IMG/VR virus record: IMGVR_UViG_2526164633_000021
Coordinates: 1 to 10,572 of that record
Length of the DNA: 10,572 bases
Direction: 5' to 3' (one strand)
DNA from: a virus
Lineage: Duplodnaviria > Heunggongvirae > Uroviricota > Caudoviricetes
Under the pieces are notes generated by a model. The model had not been told where the DNA came from, searched no databases, and saw only the letters and a program-made list of their open reading frames with translations. Every line of letters begins with the position of its first letter. Position 1 is the first letter of the stretch. Shown in pieces: positions 1 to 10,572 of the stretch. Both the position numbers and the translations under genes were made by a program.

Positions 1-489
1 TTGTTTCCTGTCATGACCGTTTTTAATCAGCCTCGCTATTTGCTCATGCTGTTCTTTTGTCAGCTTCGGTCGACGTCCGCCTGTGCGCCCCCGTGCGCGC
101 GCTGCCGCCTGTCCGGCCAGTGTACGTTCAACAATTAATTCACGTTCCATTTCAGCCAGGGCACCCATCACGTGGAAGAAAAAACGCCCCATTGGAGAAG
201 ATGTATCTATGCTGTCGGTCAGACTGCGAAAATTAATCCCTCGCTCCCGTAGTTCTCCGACGAGAGAAATCAGATGTTTCATGCTTCGCCCGAGGCGATC
301 CAGTTTCCAGACAACCAGCGTGTCACCTTTTTGAAGGTGCTTTAAAGCGCGTTTTAATCCCGGTCGGTCTGTCTTTGTTCCGCTTAATTTATCTTCAAAT
401 ATTTGTTCACATCCTGCACAAACAAGAGCGTTTCGTTGCAGGTCTGTATTCTGGTCATTTGTTGATACCCTTACATAACCAATCAGCAC
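1..489 (-). CDS. DNA invertase, second copy (Gin/Pin/Cin/Hin-family serine recombinase); N-terminal 163 codons, 3' end lies beyond the window start
   Basis: Reverse complement of 1-489 matches 3576-4064 with 6 substitutions and no indels. In the invertase frame these give 3 synonymous and 2 non-synonymous changes (Q->H, L->Q). Translation starts MLIGYVRVSTNDQNTDLQRNAL from a GTG at 489-487. Confidence 0.85.
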   Translation of the reverse strand, partial: MLIGYVRVSTNDQNTDLQRNALVCAGCEQIFEDKLSGTKTDRPGLKRALKHLQKGDTLVVWKLDRLGRSMKHLISLVGELRERGINFRSLTDSIDTSSPMGRFFFHVMGALAEMERELIVERTLAGQAAARARGRTGGRRPKLTKEQHEQIARLIKNGHDRKQ

Positions 490-543
490 ACTGAATCTCC
501 CGTCCAAAAGCGCAAATCATGCCATGCAGGCCGGAAACGGCCG

Positions 544-569
544 TTATCTAATACCTCGGTTTACAGGAA
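544..569. other. Site-specific recombination crossover site (gix/pix/cix/hix-like), left
   Basis: TTATCTAATACCTCGGTTTACAGGAA: a 26-bp site of two 12-bp half-sites around a 2-bp core, fitting the Gin-family half-site pattern TTATCNAAAACC. It is the inverted partner of 3496-3521, differing at one base. Confidence 0.8.
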
Positions 570-1457
570 ACGGTAAACAAGGCTGGTAACGCCGTTCAGC
601 GTTCCGGCGATAAAATGACCGGAGAACTGAAAATTGGAACGATGAATGCGCTGCGAATTTTTAATGATGCCTTCGGTCTTATTTTCCGCCGTTCAGAAGA
701 GTCCCTTCATTTCATCCCTACGGCTGAAGGACAAGGCGAAAACGGTGATATCGGCCCATTAAGGCCATTCGCTATAAATCTAAGAACAGGTGCTATATAT
801 GTCAGCCACGGGGCCAAAATTGAAGGAGGTCTAGCTATTGGTGCTACTGATAACGCACTGGGTGAAAACTCCATTGTTCTGGGAGATAACGACACCGGAT
901 TTAGGCAAGATGGAGATGGTATTATTAGCTTCTATTCAAATGGTTCGCGCATCGGACATATTGATGGGTTAGGATTACATCTTTATAAAGATATTGAATC
1001 TAATTGCAGCAATTTTAGATTAAAAAGTAATTACCGCCACCACATTACATTCACCAACGAAGACGGAAGTATTCGTATGTTTTTGTGGAAAGATAACGGT
1101 GGTGATGGTGTTCATATTAATAACGGTTCAGATGGTGGTGGTGATTTCATTTTTAAAACAGATGGGGGATTTGCGCTGGGAAGTGGTGCGCAAGTTGCGT
1201 CTAGTGGCGATATTTATGGTTCAGTGTGGGGAAACAACTGGTTAAGCACATGGCTGCATAATCATGTCGTTCGGGATATTCGTCTTGGCAGCATTGAATA
1301 TAAAAACGTATGGCGCGACTACGGCTTTGGCGATGCGTCAGGTTATGTTTTAACAGCCGCAATTAACGGCAATGCGGATGATCTTGTCGACACTGTTGCC
1401 AGAAGGCCAATTCAGAAATTGATTGGGGGAATATGGTACAACGTGGGGAGTGTTTAA
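552..1457 (+). CDS. Tail-fibre variable C-terminal cassette 1 (receptor-binding part); no own start, frame opens directly after a TAA at 549-551 inside the crossover site
   Basis: Open frame from 552 to the stop at 1455-1457. The N-terminal peptide [26 protein letters not shown] is encoded across the site. The GDKMTGEL-type motif and a Gly/Asp/Asn-rich beta-type sequence are typical of side tail fibres. The C-terminus [30 protein letters not shown] is shared with cassette 2. Confidence 0.8.
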
Positions 1458-1458
1458 G

Positions 1459-1986
1459 ATGATGCACTTAAAAAATATTACTGCTGGCAACCCTAAAACA
1501 AAAGAACAATACCAGCTAACTGAAAAAGCGGGCGTGGTATGGCTCTTTTGCGAAGATGGCAAAAACTGGTATGAGGAACAAAAGAATTTTCAGCCAGACA
1601 CCATAAAAATTGCTTACGATGAGAACAACATCATCGTTGCTGTCAGTAAAGACGTTTCAACTATTAATCCTGAAGGTTTTAGCGTCGTTGAGGTTCCCGA
1701 TATAACAGCCAACCGCCGCGCTGATGATTCAGGAAAGTGGATGTTTAAGGATGGAGCTGTAGTTAAACGGATTTATACAGCAGACGAACAGCAACAACAG
1801 GCCGAATCACAAAAGGCCGTATTGCTTTCCGAAGCTGAATCAGTCATCCAGCCGCTGGAACGCGCTGTCAGGCTGAATATGGCAACAGACGAGGAACGCA
1901 CACGACTGGAAGCATGGGAACGCTACAGTGTTCTGGTCAGCCGTGTGGATACGGCAAATCCTGAATGGCCACAAAAGCCTGAATAA
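1459..1986 (+). CDS. Tail fibre assembly protein (Tfa; Mu U / P2 G-like chaperone) for cassette 1
   Basis: ATGATG start 1 nt after the cassette-1 stop, with GGGGAG about 10 nt upstream. The N-terminus [20 protein letters not shown] is identical to the opposite tfa; conserved [13 protein letters not shown] and [12 protein letters not shown] blocks; the C-terminal third is divergent. Confidence 0.85.
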
Positions 1987-1992
1987 AAATTA

Positions 1993-2010
1993 AGGCCCGC
2001 TATCGGGCCT
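1993..2010. terminator. Bidirectional intrinsic terminator hairpin between the two convergent tfa genes
   Basis: AGGCCCG-CTAT-CGGGCCT stem-loop in the 28-bp gap between the tfa1 stop (1984-1986) and the tfa2 stop (2015-2017). The minus-strand sense is followed by a T-rich tract (TTAATTTTTATT); the plus-strand tail is weaker. Confidence 0.6.
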
Positions 2011-2014
2011 TGTC

Positions 2015-2548
2015 TCATTCAGGTTGTTCGGGAAATGTTACTGGCAGGCTGGAGGTGTCTGTAGATTCGACTTTCTGCGCATAGAGCATCCACTCAGTTA
2101 ATTTTTGTTTATTCTCGTCGGAAATGATGCCCAGCCGTAGCTGTGAGTCCCATAGCTGGGTTTTATCCCTGACAAGTTGCAACAGGCTTTGCTTTTCATT
2201 CTCTGCCTGCTGCCTCTGTTCCTCCTCGGTATAAGTTCGCTTTATCACTACGCCATCTTTGAACATCCATTTACCCGAAATATCAGCCCGGCGATTTGCT
2301 GTAATATCAGGAACCTCAACGACGCTTGCGCCTTCTGGATTAATTGCTGAAACATCCTTTTCAATACAAATAATAACGTTGTTGTGGTCATAGACCATTT
2401 TCAACGTATCAGGCTGAAAGTTCTTTTGTTCCTCATACCAGTTTTTCCCATCCTCTGTATAAAGCCATTTGATGTTAAATTGTTTCGTTAGCTGGTATTG
2501 CTCTTTTGTTTTAGGGTTGCCAGCAGTAATATTTTTTAAGTGCATCAT
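2015..2548 (-). CDS. Tail fibre assembly protein (Tfa) for cassette 2
   Basis: 177-aa ORF starting [23 protein letters not shown]. Its start lies 2 nt downstream of the cassette-2 stop. Mosaic similarity to tfa1: identical N-terminus, divergent C-terminus. Confidence 0.85.
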
Positions 2549-2550
2549 AA

Positions 2551-3513
2551 TTAAATACTCCCCGCGTTATACCACGTTCCATTAATGCAATACTGAATTG
2601 GCCTTGCCTGAGTTGTATCAATTAATTCATCACGGTTTCCGTTAACTGAACCTGTAACGACATAACCTGACCTGTCAGACCAGCCGGGACCATTCCATGT
2701 CTGAACAGATGACAGACCGCCAAGGCGAATACCTGTAATAAACCTTGAGTTACATTCTGCCTGCGTATATGCTCCAACATCTCCCGCAGAGGGTTTGCGG
2801 GTTGTGGTGTAAAACTCTGACCAGTTAGCTTCAAAGCCATAACCATCACGCGCTGAACGATAAAAGATACCGCCATTTCTGTAATTCACGCGGAACTGTA
2901 CAGCAGGGCAACTCCCCGCATTCATATTAAAGTGGAGGATTAATGTCGATGCGCCACTGATATCTGCATTATAAACGCCGCTATTCCAGTTCCAGCCAAC
3001 AGCTTTATCATTTGCAACCCTGCTTCCTGTTTGCCCTAAAGCAAATGCAGGCTGCTGGTTTTTCGTGTTGTAGTCTCGTCGCCAGCCAGGAGCGTAAGCA
3101 TCACCATGATTAATATAAGTGAATTGAGCGTTAGTGATTCCGCCGCCGCTGGACGTACTCGGCGTGGTAACGCGTATGGTCATTGCGCCGCGAGTGCCAA
3201 TAACTTCCACCACAGCACCTGCAAGACAAATATTTCCGCAACCTGTATCTGTAATGACCTTATTGTTTGCATAAGCCCATGAGCCTTTGCACATCCAGTA
3301 AGGATGGTTAAATGCTCCCTGACTCTCCAGCCACGAAATAAATTGCGCGGTTGTCCAGACCTGACTATCACCACCAATATTCAGCCATGCGCTATATGCG
3401 CGGCAGGCACCAATATTTTTGGTGAAGGTATCTTTTCCTGGAATATCTGCGCCGTTCTGGTTTTTCTGTAATGCGCCAGAAGCCTGATTTACCGTTTCCT
3501 GTAAACCGAGGTT
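2551..3513 (-). CDS. Tail-fibre variable C-terminal cassette 2; no own start, frame opens directly after a TAA (plus 3514-3516) inside the crossover site
   Basis: The minus-strand frame is open for 73 codons upstream of the first Met at 3294, back to the crossover site. The N-terminal peptide [16 protein letters not shown] mirrors cassette 1 and is followed by unrelated sequence. The C-terminus [31 protein letters not shown] is conserved with cassette 1. Confidence 0.8.
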
Positions 3514-4064
3514 TTAGATAATGGCCGTTTCCGGCCTGCATGGCATGATTTGCGCTTTTGGACGGGAGATTCAGTGTGCTGATTGGTTATGTAAGGGTAT
3601 CAACAAATGACCAGAATACAGACCTGCAACGAAACGCTCTTGTTTGTGCAGGATGTGAACAAATATTTGAAGATAAATTAAGCGGAACAAAGACAGACCG
3701 ACCGGGATTAAAACGCGCTTTAAAGCAGCTTCAAAAAGGTGACACGCTGGTTGTCTGGAAACTGGATCGCCTTGGGCGAAGCATGAAACATCTGATTTCT
3801 CTCGTCGGAGAACTACGGGAGCGAGGGATTAATTTTCGCAGTCTGACCGACAGCATAGATACATCTTCTCCAATGGGGCGTTTTTTCTTCCACGTGATGG
3901 GTGCCCTGGCTGAAATGGAACGTGAATTAATTGTTGAACGTACACTGGCCGGACTGGCGGCAGCGCGCGCACGGGGGCGCACAGGCGGACGTCGACCGAA
4001 GCTGACAAAAGAACAGCATGAGCAAATAGCAAGGCTGATTAAAAACGGTCACGACAGAAAACAA
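3480..4064. repeat. Right arm of the large inverted repeat (pairs with 1-585)
   Basis: Same comparison as for the left arm. How far the duplication extends past 4064 cannot be judged because the left arm runs off the window. Confidence 0.9.
3496..3521. other. Site-specific recombination crossover site (gix/pix/cix/hix-like), right
   Basis: TTCCTGTAAACCGAGGTTTTAGATAA on the plus strand, which is the reverse complement of TTATCTAAAACCTCGGTTTACAGGAA. From memory this is within one base of the phage Mu gix site. Confidence 0.8.
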
Positions 4065-4166
4065 CTGGCAATAATTTACAGCATTGGTATATCGACAATT
4101 TATCGTTACCACCCCGCAGGAGAATCAAGTGGAACAATTGAGAAGAGTAAACAAAATAACCGCTAA
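3576..4166 (+). CDS. DNA invertase (Gin/Pin/Cin/Hin-family serine recombinase), complete
   Basis: 196 aa from GTG 3576, with GGGAGA 6 nt upstream; the ORF track's 3558 start is a TTG without an RBS. MLIGYVRVSTNDQNTDLQRNAL...GDTLVVWKLDRLGRS...MGRFFFHVMGALAEMERELIVERT match the catalytic domain of small serine invertases, with a C-terminal HTH-like region. Start codon choice is tentative. Confidence 0.9.
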   Translation: MLIGYVRVSTNDQNTDLQRNALVCAGCEQIFEDKLSGTKTDRPGLKRALKQLQKGDTLVVWKLDRLGRSMKHLISLVGELRERGINFRSLTDSIDTSSPMGRFFFHVMGALAEMERELIVERTLAGLAAARARGRTGGRRPKLTKEQHEQIARLIKNGHDRKQLAIIYSIGISTIYRYHPAGESSGTIEKSKQNNR

Positions 4167-4190
4167 TCTGGCCATTAGCGGTTTTTGTGT
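4159..4190. terminator. Bidirectional intrinsic terminator between the convergent invertase and tail U genes
   Basis: ACCGCTAAT-CTGGCC-ATTAGCGGT, a 9-bp stem, followed by TTTTTGTG on the plus strand; the minus-strand side is also T-rich. The invertase stop TAA (4164-4166) lies in the stem; the U stop is at 4195-4197. Confidence 0.65.
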
Positions 4191-4194
4191 TAAA

Positions 4195-4689
4195 TCAGAA
4201 CAGCCCTTTAACGGAGCTGGCCGCGCTGTTAAGGGATGATGTGACCTTATCTTTGAAGCCGGACAGCATATCACTGAACGATGAGGATTGCAGGCGTTCC
4301 CGCAAATCCTCATCGCAGCGTTCAAGAGTCAGTGAAAACTCTATCTTTTTCGCCTTGCCGTAGCGATCAAACTCGGAACGGGTCGTATTCGTTTCAGTCA
4401 GTACATACATGCCGTAAATCTGCCCGACACCATCAATCAGAGGCCAGGGGCGTCCTGTATATGCCTGCGTGGTCAGCAACGAAAGCGACACTTCGCCACC
4501 TGTAATTTCAGGATAAAGCACGCCGGAAAGCACGATGCGATCATCACCTGCGCCGATATACTGCCAGCTTGCTGAACGGTTAACGCGTTCATTTTTCACA
4601 TGCCGCCAGCTTTTGTTTTGCTGTAACTGCTGATGCGGCAATGTGCGCAGCTCAAAAACAAACATGCCGTAGATCATCATCATGGCCAT
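4195..4689 (-). CDS. Tail protein U-like (P2 gpU family)
   Basis: 164-aa ORF placed directly after the tape measure gene, with size and position as for P2 gpU. The first of several N-terminal Met codons is taken as the start. Confidence 0.75.
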   Translation of the reverse strand: MAMMMIYGMFVFELRTLPHQQLQQNKSWRHVKNERVNRSASWQYIGAGDDRIVLSGVLYPEITGGEVSLSLLTTQAYTGRPWPLIDGVGQIYGMYVLTETNTTRSEFDRYGKAKKIEFSLTLERCDEDLRERLQSSSFSDMLSGFKDKVTSSLNSAASSVKGLF

Positions 4690-4695
4690 GACTCC

Positions 4696-7511
4696 TCAAT
4701 CTTTATCGTAAAAACTGCCACGCCCGGCACGGGCGCGCCGTTCCATTTCTGCCCTGACCATTTCGCCAATCAGTTTCGCCAGTTCGCGGGGATTCTGTGT
4801 AACAACGTTATGCAGATGAACATGAATTTCACCGCCAAATCCGGAGGCAACAGGCTCCCGGTTACGGGAAGTTGCAGGAACTGATGCCACTGGCGATCGT
4901 ATAGCCTCCGCCACCGGGCGGGAGCTGGCCGCAACAACAGGGACCAGCGCCGGAGGCAGCGGAGCCGGAACCACGGGTGTGATAGTAATTGCGGGGGCAG
5001 GCTTACTGACCTGCGCAATCTTCCGCTCCTGCCACTCCCCACGAACAGCAAGTGCGCGGGGCAGGTTCTTAAAGACAATATCGCCGGGGCCAATGCGTTT
5101 TTTCGCTCATCAACCAGCTTACCTGTGTTATCAGCAATTTTGCTGAGTCTGCGTAGCGTACCGGTATTGCTGTCTGTGAGCGGTTTGTTGTCTTTGGGTT
5201 TATCACCTCCGGTGCCATTGCCATTTTCCACAGGCTTCGGCAGATTGATTTTCGCCAGGTCCCCCTGAAGCAAGGCAACCTTGTCCTGAAGAATGGCCGC
5301 ACGCTGTGCGTCTTCGATTTTCTTGCGCGCCCTTTCCGCTTCATCCGGAAGCACACCGAGTTTTTCAAGTATCCACGCCAGCGTATCCAGTAGCATTTTT
5401 GCAGGTGTCAGAACAAGCTGTAACGCACCGCCAAGAACGTTACCGAATATCTCGCCAGCACTGGTACATTTATCCAGCGTTTCCTTGCTGGACTCCATCG
5501 GTGACAGCAGCGATTTAAACCAGTTAAACACCTGGCTGATCCCGCTTCCGATTGCGTCAAAAACAGGGCCAAACCGTTCAAAGGTTTCGCGCAACGGGGC
5601 CAGTCGCTCCATAATCCCACTGAACACCCCGGCATAAAACGCCTTGATGGGTTCCCAGTATTTCCAGATGAGAACCGCCGCAGCGACAAACGCTGCAGCA
5701 ATCAACCCGACCGGACTGAACAGCGCCCCGATAGCGCCTCCCAGTAAAGAAACGGAACCCGTCACCATTCCCCATAGTGCTGGCAGGACCCTGACAGCAT
5801 TCATTGATCCGGTCAGGAGAGAAAAACCAAGACGCAGTTTTGCCAGCGGGCCAGCAAGCACACCAATAGCTAGCGACAACGAGCCAACCGTTGCAGTCAT
5901 TGCCAGCAACGCACCGCCTGCTATCAGTAGCTGGCGCGTCAGTGTCGGATGGGCCTGCGCCAGCGCCGTCACCCTTGATACCACCCGTGTGAGCCACTGC
6001 GTGACAGAACGCAGCGGACCGTCAATCAGATCTGCAATGCGGATGCGCAACCCTTCCCATGCACTGCCGAGTGATTTCAGATCGCCGTCAAGGTTGTTGG
6101 CCATAACCTTTGCTGTGCGTTCAGCCTCACCGCGCGCGCCTTCAAGTTCTTTTCTCAGTTTGGGTAAGGAGCCGTCACCCGCTGCATCAACGAGCGCCAT
6201 AAACGATGTGAAAGCCTCTTCTCCGGCAATGTCCTTAAAGAACGATACCCGGTCAACTTCCCCGTATTTGCGGGTGGCTTTATAAAGGTCGGCCAGTACA
6301 TCCTCCATCGGGCGCATTTTGCCGTTCGCGTCAGAGACAGCCACACCCAGCTCTTTCAGCGCCTCTGCTGCCGCCTTTGGCGGTGATGCCAGACGAGCCA
6401 GGCTGGCACGCATTGCCGTCCCGGCATCACTCCCTCTGATGCCCATATTCGCCAGCACGCCCGCCATCGCAGCGGCCTGCTCCAGCGATATTCCCAGCTT
6501 ACCCGCCACCGGACCTGCATATTTCATGGTTTCGCCCAGCGCGCGAAGGTCAGTGTTGGTACGGGTAAACGCCGCTGTAAGCGTGTCGCCAACCCGGTCC
6601 ATCTGGTCAGCAGAGAGGCCGAACTGCGTCAGGATATTTGAGCCAATATCCGCCGTCTCGCCGAGATCCATACCGCCAGCCGTTGCCATGCTCAGCACGC
6701 CGGGAAGCGCAGCCTGAATGGCCTGCGGAGTAAAACCAGCCATTGCAAGAAATGCCTGTCCACTGGCGGCATCTCCAGCGGTGAACTGCGTTTCAGAGCC
6801 AAGTTTTAACGCCTGCTCACGCAGCGCCTTAAACTGTGGGCTGTTTTTGTCGATTCGCGTCAGTGCCTGAACGCGGGACATCTCTTTCCCGAACCCAATC
6901 GCGGGCTGCAAAAAACGCCCGGCAGCATAGCCGCCCGCCGCTGCCGCACCTGTTGCCAGTGCACCACCTGTTTTCAGTTTTCCCGCGGTTTCCTGCGCGC
7001 GCGAATACCGCTCACGCGCCCGCGTTACACGCGCAAGCGCCTGCCGTTCGCGTTCAAGCTGGTTGTTGTACTGTTCGGTGCGCCTGATGGCCTGTTGAAT
7101 GGTGTTATCGCTGCCTGTCAGGGAAATGCCGTGGCGTTTCAGCTCTCCGCCAAGCTCCCGCATTTTCTGAATTTCCCGTATGCGCGATTCATTCAGGCGT
7201 TCAAGCCGGGTGCTTAACTGCTGCATCAGCTTTTGTTGCTTTTCGCTGAGCACTGTACCCGTGTGTTGTAACTGATTAAGGGCGTTAAGCTGGCGTCGAG
7301 CTTTCACGATGCCAGCATCCGCTTTACTGACAGCGTCACGGGCGCGCTCAAATGAACGCGCCTGACGCTCGAGATTTTTGATCGCCCCCTGCGTTCGCTG
7401 GATGGAGTCACCAAACTGCCCCATCAGGCGGCGGGCGTTTTCGGCAGGCCGGGTCAGCCTGTCAACGGCGCTGAAAGCGACCCGGATATCAAGAGTCTTC
7501 ATTGTCTGCAT
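4696..7511 (-). CDS. Tail tape measure protein (P2 gpT-like); reading frame disrupted by a 1-nt deficit at an A6 run (plus 5097-5103)
   Basis: N-terminal frame runs 7511 to about 5100: coiled-coil, Ala/Gly-rich and hydrophobic segments typical of tape measure proteins. The C-terminal ~134 codons (...GGEIHVHLHNVVTQNPRELAKLIGEMVRAEMERRARAGRGSFYDKD) are in the -1 frame, ending at 4696. Total length 2816 nt is not a multiple of 3. Start may be ATG 7511 or 7502, or GTG 7538. Confidence 0.85.
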
Positions 7512-8018
7512 TCCCGCTGCGAAGTGCCGCCCGCTCACGCCAGCTAACCACTTCGCCGGGCGTCATCATGAAGATTTCGGCGGGCGACCAGTTAAAAATA
7601 ACGGCAATATCTGCCACAAAGTCTTCTATGTGCTCAAAGCACACAACCGTGATCAGGCTTCCGTCGCCTGTTCGTTCTTCCCGCCAGAGTCCGCACCGCT
7701 CAAAAAATTTACGGCAACCACACATAACTGAATAAAGTCACGGGATGCCATTTTTTTGATCGTCACTTCATCCAGTCGCGGTGATGTCACGCGTGACAGC
7801 AGCGTAAACATGGATTCCGCTTTCAGATTCAGCACATCAGACAACGACAAATCTCGCAGAGATCCAGCCTGCTCAATAGCTCCGGTGATCTCCACATACG
7901 TGATTTTTTCGCCGCCTCGCTCAATTGGTTGGGTAAGTTTTACGCCACGCTCACTGGTTTCTTTCACAGTGTCAGCAACGACCGTGTTTTCGGTATCGAT
8001 GTTTTTCGTCTCTTTCAT
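7489..8018 (-). CDS. E+E' tail chaperone fusion made by a programmed -1 ribosomal frameshift
   Basis: The -1 frame after the slippery site is open for ~71 codons (ERCGLWREERTGDG...NADNEDS) and ends at 7489-7491, overlapping the tape measure start. This is the same topology as P2 E/E' and lambda G/GT. Confidence 0.7.
7653..8018 (-). CDS. Tail assembly chaperone E (P2 gpE-like), zero-frame product
   Basis: 121-aa ORF immediately upstream of the tape measure, with AAGGAG 7 nt upstream of the ATG. Contains the slippery TTTTTTG near its 3' end, as in the P2 E/E' system. Confidence 0.75.
   Translation of the reverse strand: MKETKNIDTENTVVADTVKETSERGVKLTQPIERGGEKITYVEITGAIEQAGSLRDLSLSDVLNLKAESMFTLLSRVTSPRLDEVTIKKMASRDFIQLCVVAVNFLSGADSGGKNEQATEA
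7701..7707 (-). promoter_or_regulatory. Slippery heptamer T TTT TTG for the E/E' -1 programmed frameshift
   Basis: Plus strand CAAAAAA is minus strand TTTTTTG, in register as ..AAT TTT TTG.. in the E frame. The next codon in the -1 frame is GAG, continuing the E' ORF. Confidence 0.7.
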
Positions 8019-8040
8019 CAGGAAACTCCTTTCAGTCAGA

Positions 8041-8059
8041 GGCGACGCACTGCGCCGCC
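8041..8059 (-). other. Intercistronic RNA stem-loop between FII and E
   Basis: GGCGGCGCA-G-UGCGUCGCC in the mRNA sense. One stem position is a G-U wobble in the RNA, whereas on the other strand it would be an A-C mismatch. No T-tract follows, so this is not a classic terminator. Confidence 0.35.
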
Positions 8060-8072
8060 TGCATATTACTTA

Positions 8073-8585
8073 TCAGCCAAGCCCAAGCGCGGAACGGATG
8101 CGATCGGGCACAATGTCCTTGCCGTCCTTCCGGTAAATGAAGTTCAGCAGGTCAATCTCCCACAACGGGCGATCGTTAACACTCAGCTTGTAGTAGGTGT
8201 TTTTAATGGCGTAAGTGTGTGATGTGGCTTCGCCCTGTTTGGCTTCCCCCATATCAATTTCCGTCACACGTCCGCGCATTTCGACTTCATACAGGTCGCT
8301 TTCTGCATCGGTGTAGTATTCACCCGCAAAACGCAGCAGCGTGCCGTCAATCGTGCCGCCATACTTCAGGAACAGCTCACGAACTGCGCCCCCCATGACA
8401 AAGCTCGCATCAAGCGCGGAGTCGTCCAGACCGAGATCAATACTTACCGCACCCATCATGCCACCACCCCGGTAGCTGTCGGTTTTGCGCGTCAGCTTAG
8501 GCAGAGTGACGGACGTCACCTTACCCACTTCGTTTTCACCATCCACAAACAGCGTAAAAAAGCGAAGATGTTTTGGCACAGCCAT
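8073..8585 (-). CDS. Tail tube protein (P2 gpFII-like)
   Basis: 170-aa ORF: MAVPKHLRFF...KVTSVTLPKLTRKTDSYRGGGMMGAVSIDLGLDDSALDA matches the FII tail tube family. Its ATG overlaps the FI stop (TGATG). Confidence 0.9.
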   Translation of the reverse strand: MAVPKHLRFFTLFVDGENEVGKVTSVTLPKLTRKTDSYRGGGMMGAVSIDLGLDDSALDASFVMGGAVRELFLKYGGTIDGTLLRFAGEYYTDAESDLYEVEMRGRVTEIDMGEAKQGEATSHTYAIKNTYYKLSVNDRPLWEIDLLNFIYRKDGKDIVPDRIRSALGLG

Positions 8586-9768
8586 CAGGCACCTCCCAGC
8601 ACCGCAAATGCAGGTTCAAAGTATTCATCAGTAAACGTCTGGTAAAGCTCCATGTCTTCCAGTGGCGGAACGGGCGTATATTTGTAGCGAATACGCACAC
8701 GCCCCTGCGTAAATCCGTGGTGCTGTTATCCACCACGTCATACCAGCACTCCGCGCCAATCAGTTTCCCGGCAGTCACCAGTGAATCCAGTTTTGCCCTG
8801 ATGGCACTGATAACATCCTTCACGTTCGCAGGCGTCAGTGGACTGTCGATGGTTTCAAACTGCGCTTCTGCAATTGAATCAGCCAGCACCTGTGCGGTTC
8901 GGGTATACACCTCAAAGATGTAGGCGTTCGTTTCCGGTGTGCGGTTGCCCCAGAAGCGGAACCCGTTGCGACGAATAATGGTCGTGATTTCTTTGTTGTT
9001 GAGGCTGTTGGCATCGCTGTCTTCGGCCTGCAACGACCAGAACACATGCCTCGACATCCCCAGCACATTTTTAACCGGAACGTTGGACAGCGATTTGTGC
9101 CAGCCCTGCTCATGGTCAATGTACGCACGAAGGCCGCACGCATAGGCAGGCGCGGGGAACGTTTCGTTTTTGCCACTTTTCGGGTTGTAGGCGATGAAGT
9201 CCGGCCATAAGAGCATCACTTCACGTTCGTTGAATTTCTGGCGGTAGGTAATCGCTTCAGCCATCGTGTTACAGCCGCGACATGAGGCATACACAAATGC
9301 GCGCAGTTTACCCGCAATCACGCACAGGGATTTTGTCACCGCCTCCGTGTCCAGCTCCGGCGCGGCCAGAATACGCGGACGGTATCCGATGCTTTCATCC
9401 TGCTCTGCAACAAGCAGCGCATACATCCCCGTATAGCTGCCGTCAGATTCAGAACCACCGATAACCAGTTGATCCTGCGTTTTTCCGTCTTCTTCTTTGT
9501 GTTCAGCCACGCGAACGACGATCACCTTTGTGCTCACCTGGTCTGCGATGGCCTTAAGCGCACGATAAAGCGTCCCCGTTGTCCCGCATTTTCCCAGCAC
9601 GTCATTGACGCGGGTCAGCAGTGTGGGCTTGTTCAGCGGGAACAGCTTCGCGTCCGCATCATCCGCCGTTGCCACGATACCGATAACGCTGGAATCAACA
9701 TCGTTAATCGCTGTTACCAGGTCGGTATTTTCCGTAACACGGGCACCATGAAAACGAGTTTCACTCAT
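8585..9768 (-). CDS. Tail sheath protein (P2 gpFI-like); frame disrupted by a 1-nt deficit between plus 8702 and 8726
   Basis: The N-terminal ~355 codons match the sheath family (WPDF, IDHEQGWHKSLSNV, IIRRNGFRFWGNRT, YTRTAQV). The conserved C-terminus RIRYKYTPVPPLEDMELYQTFTDEYFEPAFAVLGGA is in the -1 frame. Length 1184 nt is not a multiple of 3. Confidence 0.85.
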
Positions 9769-9925
9769 AGCTTCAGCCCCTTGTATCCGTTAAATGATTC
9801 GGCAACAATCATCACCCACCACGCGCGTAATCTCACCCCTGCGCCGTTCTCCCGCCACGGCGACAACAAAAAGCAGTAACCCCCTCCGCACGCACATGCG
9901 ACCATGCCGCACAGGGAGGGAGCAG

Positions 9926-10572
9926 ATGACCGACACCACCATGCAATTGCTCAGTCAGGGCACAGACCCCGTGAAAATGCCGGATTTTGATATTCTCGCG
10001 GAGGGTAAAACGCTGTCAGGCGTGGCAGAGCGCCTGATGAGCCTGTCACTGACCGACAACCGGGGATTTGAGGCGGACCAGCTCACCATCACGTTGGATG
10101 ATGCGGATGGTCAGTTGCAGCTACCGCCACGGGGCGCGCGCCTGACGGTTCTCATTGGCTGGAAGGGAGAACCGCTGACAGAAAAAGGCACTTACATTGT
10201 TGATGAAATCGCTCACGAAGGACCGCCGGACAGGCTGACTGTTTCAGCCAGAAGCGCAGATTTTCGGGATGAATTTAACGTTAAACGTGAGGTGTCCTGG
10301 CATGATGTGACCGTTGAGCGTGTGGTATCCGCCATCGCTCATCGGTATGGTCTGAAACCGCAAATCAGCGAAATGCTGATGGATATCGAAATCGACCACG
10401 CCGACCAGACCGAAGAAAGCGACATGTCCTTCCTTACGCGCATGGCGGAAATGCTGGGCGCAATCACCACGGTAAAAAGCGGTAATCTGTTATTCATCAT
10501 GCCCGGTGGTGGCGTGAACGCACAGGGCCAGCCGTTGCCATCGTTCGCCATCACACGCAGCAGCGGCGATCG
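9926..10572 (+). CDS. Tail protein D-like (phage late control gene D / GPD family), N-terminal 215 codons; continues past the window end
   Basis: ATG at 9926 with AGGGAGGG 6 nt upstream. LMSLSLTDNRGFEADQLTITLDDADGQ and SARSADFR...WHD...ESDMSFLTRMAE match the conserved N-terminal region of P2 gpD, as recalled from memory. Confidence 0.85.
   Translation, partial: MTDTTMQLLSQGTDPVKMPDFDILAEGKTLSGVAERLMSLSLTDNRGFEADQLTITLDDADGQLQLPPRGARLTVLIGWKGEPLTEKGTYIVDEIAHEGPPDRLTVSARSADFRDEFNVKREVSWHDVTVERVVSAIAHRYGLKPQISEMLMDIEIDHADQTEESDMSFLTRMAEMLGAITTVKSGNLLFIMPGGGVNAQGQPLPSFAITRSSGD

Follow-up and report, generated by a model that had tools for sequence, protein, structure and literature searches.

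The window analysed here, a stretch of 10,572 nucleotides, covers the tail end of a P88-like prophage of the family Peduoviridae, probably of the genus Xuanwuvirus. The ICTV demarcation for genera is about 70% over the genome; the window, which represents 10.6 kb of a genome of ∼36 kb, is colinear with P88 over positions 1428-10572 and 95.8% identical to it at the nucleotide level across that part. Homologues of FI, FII, T, gpU and gpD are found together, as in the contractile-tail set typical of P2-type phages (Peduoviridae), and the E/E+E' chaperone pair with a T-rich slippery site, itself a P2-type feature, is also present (Table 1). The slippery heptamer, TTTTTTG, was read from the sequence on the minus strand at 7701-7707, inside the E/E' overlap, and E' is predicted to be reached through a -1 frameshift at this heptamer. 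The partial D protein scores 26.4 bits against PF05954, a domain carried by full-length homologues, and it is 99% identical to P88 gpD, the underlying DNA being 99.4-100% identical to P88 over the D stretch.

The organization differs from that of the canonical P2 F operon in that FI and D point away from each other on different strands. Profile matches and ORF positions bear out the original prediction as to the minus-strand location of U, T, E/E', FII and FI, and D does begin on the plus strand at 9926, 157 bp away from the FI start, as had been stated. The bidirectional terminator that had been proposed between U and the invertase gene, at 4159-4190, is likewise present, as a hairpin at 4158-4183. 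The tail operon, at its U end, and the invertase gene have this hairpin in common, and P88 keeps it as well; the invertase stop codon (4166) lies inside the stem, whereas U stops at 4195. The invertase gene, whose GTG start at 3576 is the counterpart of the P88 gp43 start, is context beside the inverted block and lies outside it.

Table 1. Genes, terminator and predicted promoter elements at the invertase-to-D end of the window.
Feature	Position	Strand	Evidence or remarks
Invertase gene, Gin-family serine DNA invertase	3576-4166	+	PF00239 (E 1.1e-50) and PF02796; converges on U
Intrinsic bidirectional terminator hairpin	4158-4183		10-pair stem, then T runs on both strands
U (gpU tail protein)	4195-4689	-	PF06995 (E 5.5e-39); phrog_76
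T (gpT tape measure), ORF as listed	4770-7502	-	PF10145 (E 2.2e-58)
E and E' tail chaperone genes	E 7653-8018; E' extension to 7489	-	E: phrog_103 (E 3e-35); E': PF06528 (E 1.3e-12)
FII (gpFII tail tube)	8073-8585	-	PF04985 (E 7.5e-47)
FI (gpFI tail sheath), ORF as listed	8536-9768	-	PF04984 and PF22671
FI-D divergent intergenic region	9769-9925		Exactly 157 bp
Predicted PF -10 hexamer, GATGAT	9808-9813	-	Invariant columns A9808, T9809 and T9812 in spacer alignment A3
Dyad, TCT-N12-ACA	9848-9865, centre 9856.5		Family consensus T(G/C)T-N12-ACA, flanked by GTT...ACAACAAAA
Predicted D extended -10, TG-n-GACCAT	9897-9905	+	Invariant columns T9897, G9898, A9901 and T9905 in spacer alignment A3
D (gpD baseplate hub), N-terminal 215 codons, continues past the window	9926-10572	+	phrog_52 (E 4e-97)

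Gene order in P2 and in relatives of the window

The P2 record gives the order FI-FII-E-E'-T-U-D-ogr as a single F operon, in line with the co-directional order taken as canonical in the original prediction. P2 has the same seven gene families as the window, the TTTTTTG heptamer for E+E', and ogr downstream of D, but the protein identities between the two are only 33-49%. In P2 the seven genes are co-directional on one transcript from the promoter PF, and the U stop overlaps the D start, whereas in the window the FI-U block is inverted and D forms a separate divergent unit. The window itself ends inside D; an ogr homologue follows D in P88, in E300082 and in 41 other loci. This departure from P2 had been read either as the record of an inversion of ∼5.6 kb in a rearrangement-prone, possibly defective prophage or as a different native arrangement in which D has its own promoter.

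Intact, inducible phages with the same divergent order, which had been named in advance as evidence against a recent inversion, exist. Gene order and orientations from the invertase gene to D, the 157-bp spacer and the hairpin are all the same in P88 and in Citrobacter phage phiSM, whose shared parts are 95.8% and 94.1% identical to the window in nucleotide sequence; the window differs from both in its 1-nt deletions in T and FI. P88 is mitomycin C-inducible and plaque-forming, with a burst size of ∼65 and a contractile tail by electron microscopy (PMC5285337), and phiSM forms plaques and lysogens (PMC6456863). Other deposited phages, P884B11 among them, and E. coli prophages adjoining ihfA show the divergent order as well. 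Of 5,426 complete E. coli genomes, 1,371 match the FI/D junction and 1,355 have it intact; these loci, like those counted next, are homologous and hence not independent. In a scan of GTDB species genomes that was keyed on two D peptide patterns and thus sampled mostly the D clade itself, 43 D-anchored loci were informative, and 42 of them have the arrangement J+ I+ H+ (inv+) U- T- E- FII- FI- D+ ogr+. The 42 loci are spread over ∼20 Enterobacterales genera, with D identities of 66-99%. SEN4 and SEN5 of Salmonella (Senquatrovirus; D identity 62% for SEN5) and Kp4871-3 of Klebsiella (Reginaelenavirus; 70%) have the order U- T- E- FII- FI- / D+ with a dyad-containing spacer of 153-157 bp, although, unlike the window, they are without an invertase gene. 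The canonical order was found only at D identities ≤52%, in a small comparison set of four loci (P2, Cartapus, a Gegavirus phage and Orbus).

Because the divergent order occurs in the functional phage P88, in 1,355 E. coli genomes and at 42 of 43 informative D-anchored loci, we conclude that it is the native, long-conserved order of the P88-like branch, and neither a recent rearrangement nor a sign of decay. The second of the two earlier readings is thus supported by the relatives, its promoter for D being a prediction that we take up below. The earlier argument that flipping the block would yield invertase> FI>...U> D> is right as evolutionary history, since this exact order exists in Cartapus (Elveevirus). 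Like the window, Cartapus is P2-type and has an invertible tail-fibre segment and an invertase gene adjoining the tail operon; unlike the window, it runs invertase> FI> FII> E> T> U> D> ogr> with all genes co-directional, and its D identity is 52%. The segment from PF through U (FI, FII, E/E', T and U), which stands opposite to D and ogr, represents a fixed ancestral inversion relative to P2, not an event in the prophage of the window. This old inversion defines the clade, probably with a single origin, and the few outgroups, together with textbook knowledge of other P2-type phages, suggest that the inverted state is the derived one.

Genomes or gene maps that contain the arrangement have been published, but in the literature that we searched on P88, phiSM, SEN4/5, Serratia PP4 and Peduoviridae inversions the inversion is discussed nowhere. 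When prophages are called or annotated, finding FI and D divergent in a P2-type element is no ground for recording rearrangement or decay. The divergent pair is instead a reliable marker of a large clade, to which Xuanwuvirus, Senquatrovirus, Reginaelenavirus and many unnamed enterobacterial prophages belong; about a quarter of complete E. coli genomes carry it.

Private frameshifts and the adjacent invertase

Relative to both P88 and E300082, T in the window has a 1-nt deletion at ∼5106, and the encoded sequence diverges from codon ∼799 (of 935) onward; relatives have a T frame that runs on to the equivalent of position 4696. None of the 1,366 E. coli genomes having the stretch shares this deletion. 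FI has a 1-nt deletion at ∼8708 relative to the same two sequences, absent in turn from 1,293 of 1,293 E. coli genomes having that stretch. Divergence of the FI protein sets in at residue 352 of 394, which leaves the final ∼42 codons in the wrong frame and extends the ORF into FII, whereas in relatives FI ends beside the FII start. The 3' ends originally listed for FI and T (8536 and 4770) are consequently products of these private deletions, while the strands and identities assigned to both genes stand. The 3' end of the invertase gene carries a 4-nt deletion relative to P88 and phiSM, and to the left of the left-hand gix site the window has an invertase-side flank where P88 and phiSM have the constant part of the tail-fibre gene.

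The deletions in T and FI and the odd left flank could be sequence or assembly errors. In either case the frameshifts are independent point events, unrelated to the orientation of the block. The suspicion of a defective prophage is unfounded as regards gene order, and may apply to this copy through its two private frameshifts, unless these are sequencing errors. Should the inverted block itself be an assembly artefact of this contig, the left end, which resembles an assembly path through an invertible repeat, and the two unusual single-base deletions would be its traces; yet positions 540-10572 are colinear with complete, independently assembled genomes and with phage records, and we give this explanation virtually no credence. 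A recent in-place inversion of ∼4195-9768 in this prophage, marking rearrangement-prone decay, would fit the order unlike that of P2, the invertase gene at one border, and the private frameshifts and odd left flank of this copy. It is nevertheless very improbable, given that order and spacer length are identical in functional phages and in the E. coli genomes, that the same order extends across ∼20 genera and down to 62% D identity, and that the frameshifts are independent of orientation.

The adjacent invertase also bears on a further explanation, according to which this Gin-family enzyme actively flips the FI-U block, and the window displays one of the two states of that block. A functional-looking invertase gene with gix sites does adjoin the block, and enzymes of the Gin type can act on sites in other prophages (bioRxiv 10.1101/2022.05.07.487787). 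However, the inverted 26-bp sites by which Gin/Hin-type segments are recognized are absent from the borders of the FI-U block. Real gix sites occur only at 544-569 and 3497-3522; the best gix-like match near 4190 or within 9769-9925 has 12 mismatches out of 26, which is the background level, and the longest inverted match between the two junction zones is 9 nt, in agreement with the original prediction that no repeat at the junctions would have mediated an inversion. Nor does the block appear in both orientations: the divergent junction is intact in 1,355 of the 1,371 matching E. coli genomes, 42 of 42 clade loci share one orientation, and not one junction in the opposite orientation turned up. 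The tail-fibre invertible segment (G segment), in contrast, was encountered in both states. Most clade members, moreover, share the orientation of the block without having any invertase gene, and a flip would part FI from its promoter geometry. We therefore consider active inversion of the FI-U block barely conceivable. The “duplicated invertase arm”, from which proneness to rearrangement had been argued, turns out to be an ordinary junction of the G segment in its other orientation.

The FI-D spacer as a predicted bidirectional late promoter

In all divergent loci the FI-D spacer measures 145-161 bp, and conserved blocks are visible in an alignment of 23 spacer sequences (A3) whose mean column identity is 59%. 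Late promoters of the Ogr/Delta type were recognized by a partial dyad, TGT-N12-ACA, centred ∼55 nt upstream of the start, together with a weak -35. The exact form TGT-N12-ACA has 0 matches in the window, the left half-site of the dyad in Table 1 being TCT, one mismatch from the ideal. The relaxed form T(G/C)T was taken after a fixed column in the 23-sequence alignment and after the imperfect sites of P2, whose own annotated activator sites also deviate (TGT-N12-CCA). Positions 9848-9865 are the sole match to T[GC]T-N12-ACAA in the window, and 41 of 43 distinct spacers have the dyad at the corresponding place in the alignment, the other two being without even the relaxed pattern. An extended version of the dyad motif recurs in the divergent P-O spacer of P88. 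We regard the dyad as a putative shared activator site of the Ogr/Delta type.

The predicted start of PF, at ∼9801 on the minus strand, lies 55.5 nt from the dyad centre. From the dyad centre to the FI ATG there are 78-88 nt in the inverted lineages, compared with 78-85 nt in canonical P2, Cartapus and Gegavirus (in P2 PF the activator dyad precedes the FI ATG by ∼83 nt). On the opposite face, the predicted start of D, at ∼9912 on the plus strand, is separated from the dyad centre by the same 55.5 nt and precedes the D ATG by 14 nt. The two predicted starts are hence 111 bp apart, as are the PP start (3016) and the PO start (3127) of P2, for which the P2 record annotates a single activator site. 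PP/PO consists, like FI/D, of back-to-back late units ∼155 bp apart around one central dyad. P2 is documented to use such a design for its P/Q and O... operons only, and the FI-D spacer, with a single activator site for two promoters, resembles a second such design.

These features suggest that 9769-9925 is a bidirectional, Ogr-dependent late promoter that gives D a start of its own; conservation of the dyad and of the -10-like elements points to promoter function, Ogr dependence and start sites rather than showing them. The inverted unit would have brought PF and its activator dyad along, so that the dyad came to stand immediately in front of D and could serve two late promoters arranged back to back, as in the PP/PO pair. 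PF would then read leftward through FI-FII-E/E'-T-U and end at the hairpin common to the invertase gene, and the D promoter would read rightward into D and, in complete relatives, onward into ogr.

It may also be that the order is native but that D does without an Ogr-dependent promoter sharing the PF dyad, being constitutive or otherwise regulated, or that the dyad is there for PF only. The D-side -35 is poor (TAACCC), and the predicted leader is just 14 nt long. On the other hand, the TG-n-nAnnnT motif is invariant and correctly spaced from the dyad despite the low mean column identity of the spacer, the geometry matches exactly that of P2 PP/PO, where one site serves both promoters, and D is a late structural protein that is needed in step with the other tail proteins. 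We judge separate control of D to be unlikely, while still giving it some weight.

As regards the steps by which a shared promoter would have arisen, we lean towards an ancient inversion that placed PF and its symmetric Ogr dyad upstream of D, after which a -10 element for D arose on the far side of the dyad, 55 bp away, and the arrangement was kept in ∼20 enterobacterial genera. The joint account, a clade-fixed ancestral inversion relative to P2 together with a predicted bidirectional late promoter built on a shared dyad, is in our view highly probable. If it is true, an inversion can split an operon while coordinated late control survives, and the FI-D spacer would offer a natural case in which one activator site was captured to build a second bidirectional late promoter. 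In the literature searched, we did not find such a capture described at FI/D.

An Rfam scan of the window gave no matches, and a generic sigma-70 scan returned a single site, inside D on the minus strand, which was fewer than in shuffled sequence and was disregarded. Two ORFs that overlap the spacer, 9469-9879 (+) and 9790-9942 (-), are hypothetical in P88 and SEN5 and were treated as spurious; spacer conservation is confined to short motif blocks. The first 12-18 residues of D are variable, and a breakpoint scar was considered as the source, but this is a weak indication since N-termini vary anyway.

Divergent gene order in the window and in functional relatives

Six-frame ORFs and profile searches of the window identified the genes listed below. 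Together with the hairpin and the 157-bp spacer, they confirm in all essentials the gene strands, the FI/D divergence and the bidirectional terminator of the original prediction. The departure from P2 is also real: the P2 record annotates FI, FII, E, E', T, U, D and ogr as one co-directional F operon, whereas in the window FI...U run opposite to D.

Features of the window
Feature	Position	Strand	Basis
Tail-fibre C-terminal segment and assembly gene (G segment)	615-1986	+	ORFs, profile searches
Alternative tail-fibre set (G segment)	2015-3294	-	ORFs, profile searches
Gin-family invertase gene	3576-4166	+	ORFs, profile searches
10-pair hairpin, terminator score on both strands	4158-4183	both	terminator scan
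gpU	4195-4689	-	ORFs, profile searches
Tape measure T	4770-7502	-	ORFs, profile searches
E/E'	7489-8018	-	ORFs, profile searches
P2-type slippery site TTTTTTG	7701-7707	-	within E/E' overlap
Tube FII	8073-8585	-	ORFs, profile searches
Sheath FI	8536-9768	-	ORFs, profile searches
FI-D spacer	9769-9925		157 bp
Predicted -10 hexamer GATGAT, FI side; GTGAGA 17 bp upstream	invariant A9808, T9809, T9812	-	23-spacer alignment
Dyad TCT-N12-ACA, window copy	9848-9865		23-spacer alignment
Predicted extended -10 TG-n-GACCAT, D side	invariant T9897, G9898, A9901, T9905	+	23-spacer alignment
gpD start, gene continues past window end	9926 onward	+	ORFs, profile searches

A further GC-rich hairpin with a trailing T run, which also scores as a terminator, lies on the minus strand at 4716-4737, within the T 3' end of relatives and just upstream of U. 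P88 keeps it too; it may act as an attenuator or may match by chance.

The divergent order had been read as the trace of a ~5.6 kb inversion in a rearrangement-prone prophage, or else as a native arrangement in which D has its own promoter. Three lines of evidence favor the native arrangement, one of them being its spread across genera (next section). First, functional phages share it. Escherichia phage P88 (genus Xuanwuvirus) aligns colinearly with window 1428-10572 at 95.8% identity, and its record lists the invertase on the plus strand, U, T, E', E, FII and FI on the minus strand and D again on the plus strand; FI and D are 157 bp apart, as in the window, and D is followed by an ogr-like ORF and by hok. 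Mitomycin C induction yielded P88, a plaque-forming phage with a burst size of ~65 whose tail is contractile in electron micrographs (PMC5285337). Citrobacter phage phiSM, 94.1% identical to the window and likewise divergent, forms plaques, lysogenises stably and has been described as fully functional and related to P88 (PMC6456863). Secondly, when a 571-bp FI/D junction probe was run against 5,426 complete E. coli genomes, the junction was intact in 1,355 of the 1,371 that matched, about a quarter of the collection; in E. coli E300082 the entire prophage adjoins ihfA with the gene order of the window. Functional relatives with a divergent FI...U / D order are what the original prediction itself had named as contradicting an inversion. 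Consequently, the order is native and a recent inversion in a rearrangement-prone prophage is refuted. Annotated genomes of functional phages that show the arrangement had been published before, and the papers examined do not remark on it.

Active switching of the block by the neighbouring invertase would also place FI...U opposite to D, but we reject it. The true gix sites, at which Gin-family invertases recombine, lie at 544-569 and 3497-3522, around the invertible tail-fibre G segment; our search near both block borders returned nothing gix-like with fewer than 12 mismatches in 26; no inverted match longer than 9 nt links the two borders; and all relatives examined (clade loci and E. coli genomes) carry the block in a single orientation. 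Moreover, most clade members lack the invertase gene, which is therefore not tied to the arrangement. An assembly artefact is excluded by the colinearity of 4195-10572 with many complete genomes. Phages 503458 and 520873 and E. coli ETEC-2264 carry IS100 (IS21-family) or ISVsa5 insertions within the tail region and are otherwise colinear with this stretch.

Distribution and probable origin of the divergent order

An alignment of 13 gpD homologues was used to fetch 44 loci from one-genome-per-species collections, and P88 proteins were placed on them by tblastn. The order J+ I+ H+ (invertase+ in some) U- T- E- FII- FI- D+ ogr+ was found in 42 of 43 informative loci, in a sample drawn mainly from the inverted clade since the scan patterns were derived from D. 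These 42 loci come from Salmonella, Citrobacter, Edwardsiella, Serratia, Kluyvera, Erwinia, Enterobacter, Pantoea, Mixta, Kosakonia, Pectobacterium, Brenneria, Izhakiella, Klebsiella, Raoultella, Yokenella, Trabulsiella, Symbiopectobacterium and others, and their D is 66-99% identical to that of P88. SEN5 (Senquatrovirus, 62%) and Kp4871-3 (Reginaelenavirus, 70%) are also divergent, whereas the order is canonical in P2 (49%), Cartapus (Elveevirus, 52%), ST15-OXA48phi14.1 (Gegavirus, 51%) and the one exceptional locus, Orbus (48%). All inverted genomes are thus closer to P88 in D identity than any canonical genome, in a comparison with few canonical genomes. The order derived by flipping the block in the original prediction, invertase> FI>...U> D>, is exactly that of Cartapus. 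The simplest history suggested by these alignments is one old inversion, now clade-defining.

One locus attributed to a Gram-positive host ('Vagococcus sp. WN89Y', NZ_JBQPOM010000071.1) carries a P88-like prophage tail region whose proteins share 93-99% identity with those of P88, and is probably contamination or a mislabelled assembly. In the complete genomes of E. coli E300082 (L002 21395-22504) and FDAARGOS_1059 (L052 1774-2574), the RefSeq annotation cuts gpD down to 266 aa, names it a 'VgrG/Pvc8 family' protein and places a small pseudogene fragment across the 5' portion, although by tblastn the similarity to D begins at the usual start. Some P88-like prophages may have a D gene that is disrupted or has been given a wrong start. 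In E300082, an additional ORF of 666 bp separates D from ogr.

A putative bidirectional promoter between FI and D

Mean column identity across 23 aligned FI-D spacers was 59%, with conservation only in short blocks. First among these is the dyad T(G/C)T-N12-ACA, whose longer form is GTT(G/C)T...ACAACAAAA. In 41 of the 43 distinct spacers it sits at the same alignment position, and the other 2 lack it; its copy in the table is the sole match in the window, where exact TGT-N12-ACA is absent. The starts predicted from the two -10 hexamers, ~9801 (-) and ~9912 (+), are each 55.5 nt from the dyad centre and 111 bp apart. The same spacing separates the P2 pO and pP starts (3016 and 3127), between which the P2 record places one 'activator binding site; pO, pP promoters' (3057-3087), and the 154-bp P-O spacer of P88 holds the same extended motif, GTTCT-N10-TACAACAAAAG. 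This conservation points to a putative bidirectional FI/D promoter with a shared activator, and a D promoter of its own, as originally proposed, is inferred from it.

The dyad centre lies 78-88 nt from the FI ATG in the inverted clade; for P2, Cartapus and Gegavirus, which have the canonical order, the figure is 78-85 nt. This agreement suggests that FI took its late promoter (PF) and the activator site along when it was inverted. The inverted unit would then be activator site-PF-FI...U, and D would have acquired a -10 element on the opposite face of the symmetric activator site. Transcripts from PF would end at the 4158-4183 hairpin, and those of D would reach ogr wherever the genome is complete; the terminator note in the P2 record describes late F-operon transcripts in the same way. 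The inferred promoter is the only mildly new element.

Frameshifts and the left flank

Compared with both P88 and E300082, the window has single-base deletions at ~5106, shifting the T frame after codon ~799 of 935, and at ~8708, shifting FI after residue 352 of 394. Both deletions fall outside homopolymers, and neither allele occurred among the E. coli genomes with those stretches (1,366 for T, 1,293 for FI). Either these are inactivating mutations unique to this copy or they are errors in the sequence; whether this copy is defective is a question separate from block orientation.

Window 1-599 is an inverted copy of 3466-4064 (97% identical), comprising a gix site and the 5' part of the invertase gene. 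The 'duplicated invertase arm' therefore exists, but its reading as a sign of rearrangement did not hold: the left junction (invertase, gix site, tail-fibre segment) is found unbroken in 151 complete E. coli genomes, with the full layout in FDAARGOS_1059, and represents the normal P88-like junction with the G segment in the other orientation. In the window the G segment has the invertase side at both ends, the left one without the constant part of the tail-fibre gene. This suggests that the assembly path ran through an invertible repeat or that the source had two copies of the prophage; gix-by-gix exchange between prophages, of a kind reported in an ST131 lineage (bioRxiv 10.1101/2022.05.07.487787), is less likely. 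Window 540-3950 (cassette and invertase gene) matches the G segment of Mu, D108 and SfMu, as well as the C segment of P1/P7, at 92-95% identity, and the rest of the window shows no similarity to these phages. By this similarity, the tail-fibre cassette is a module common to unrelated phage families.
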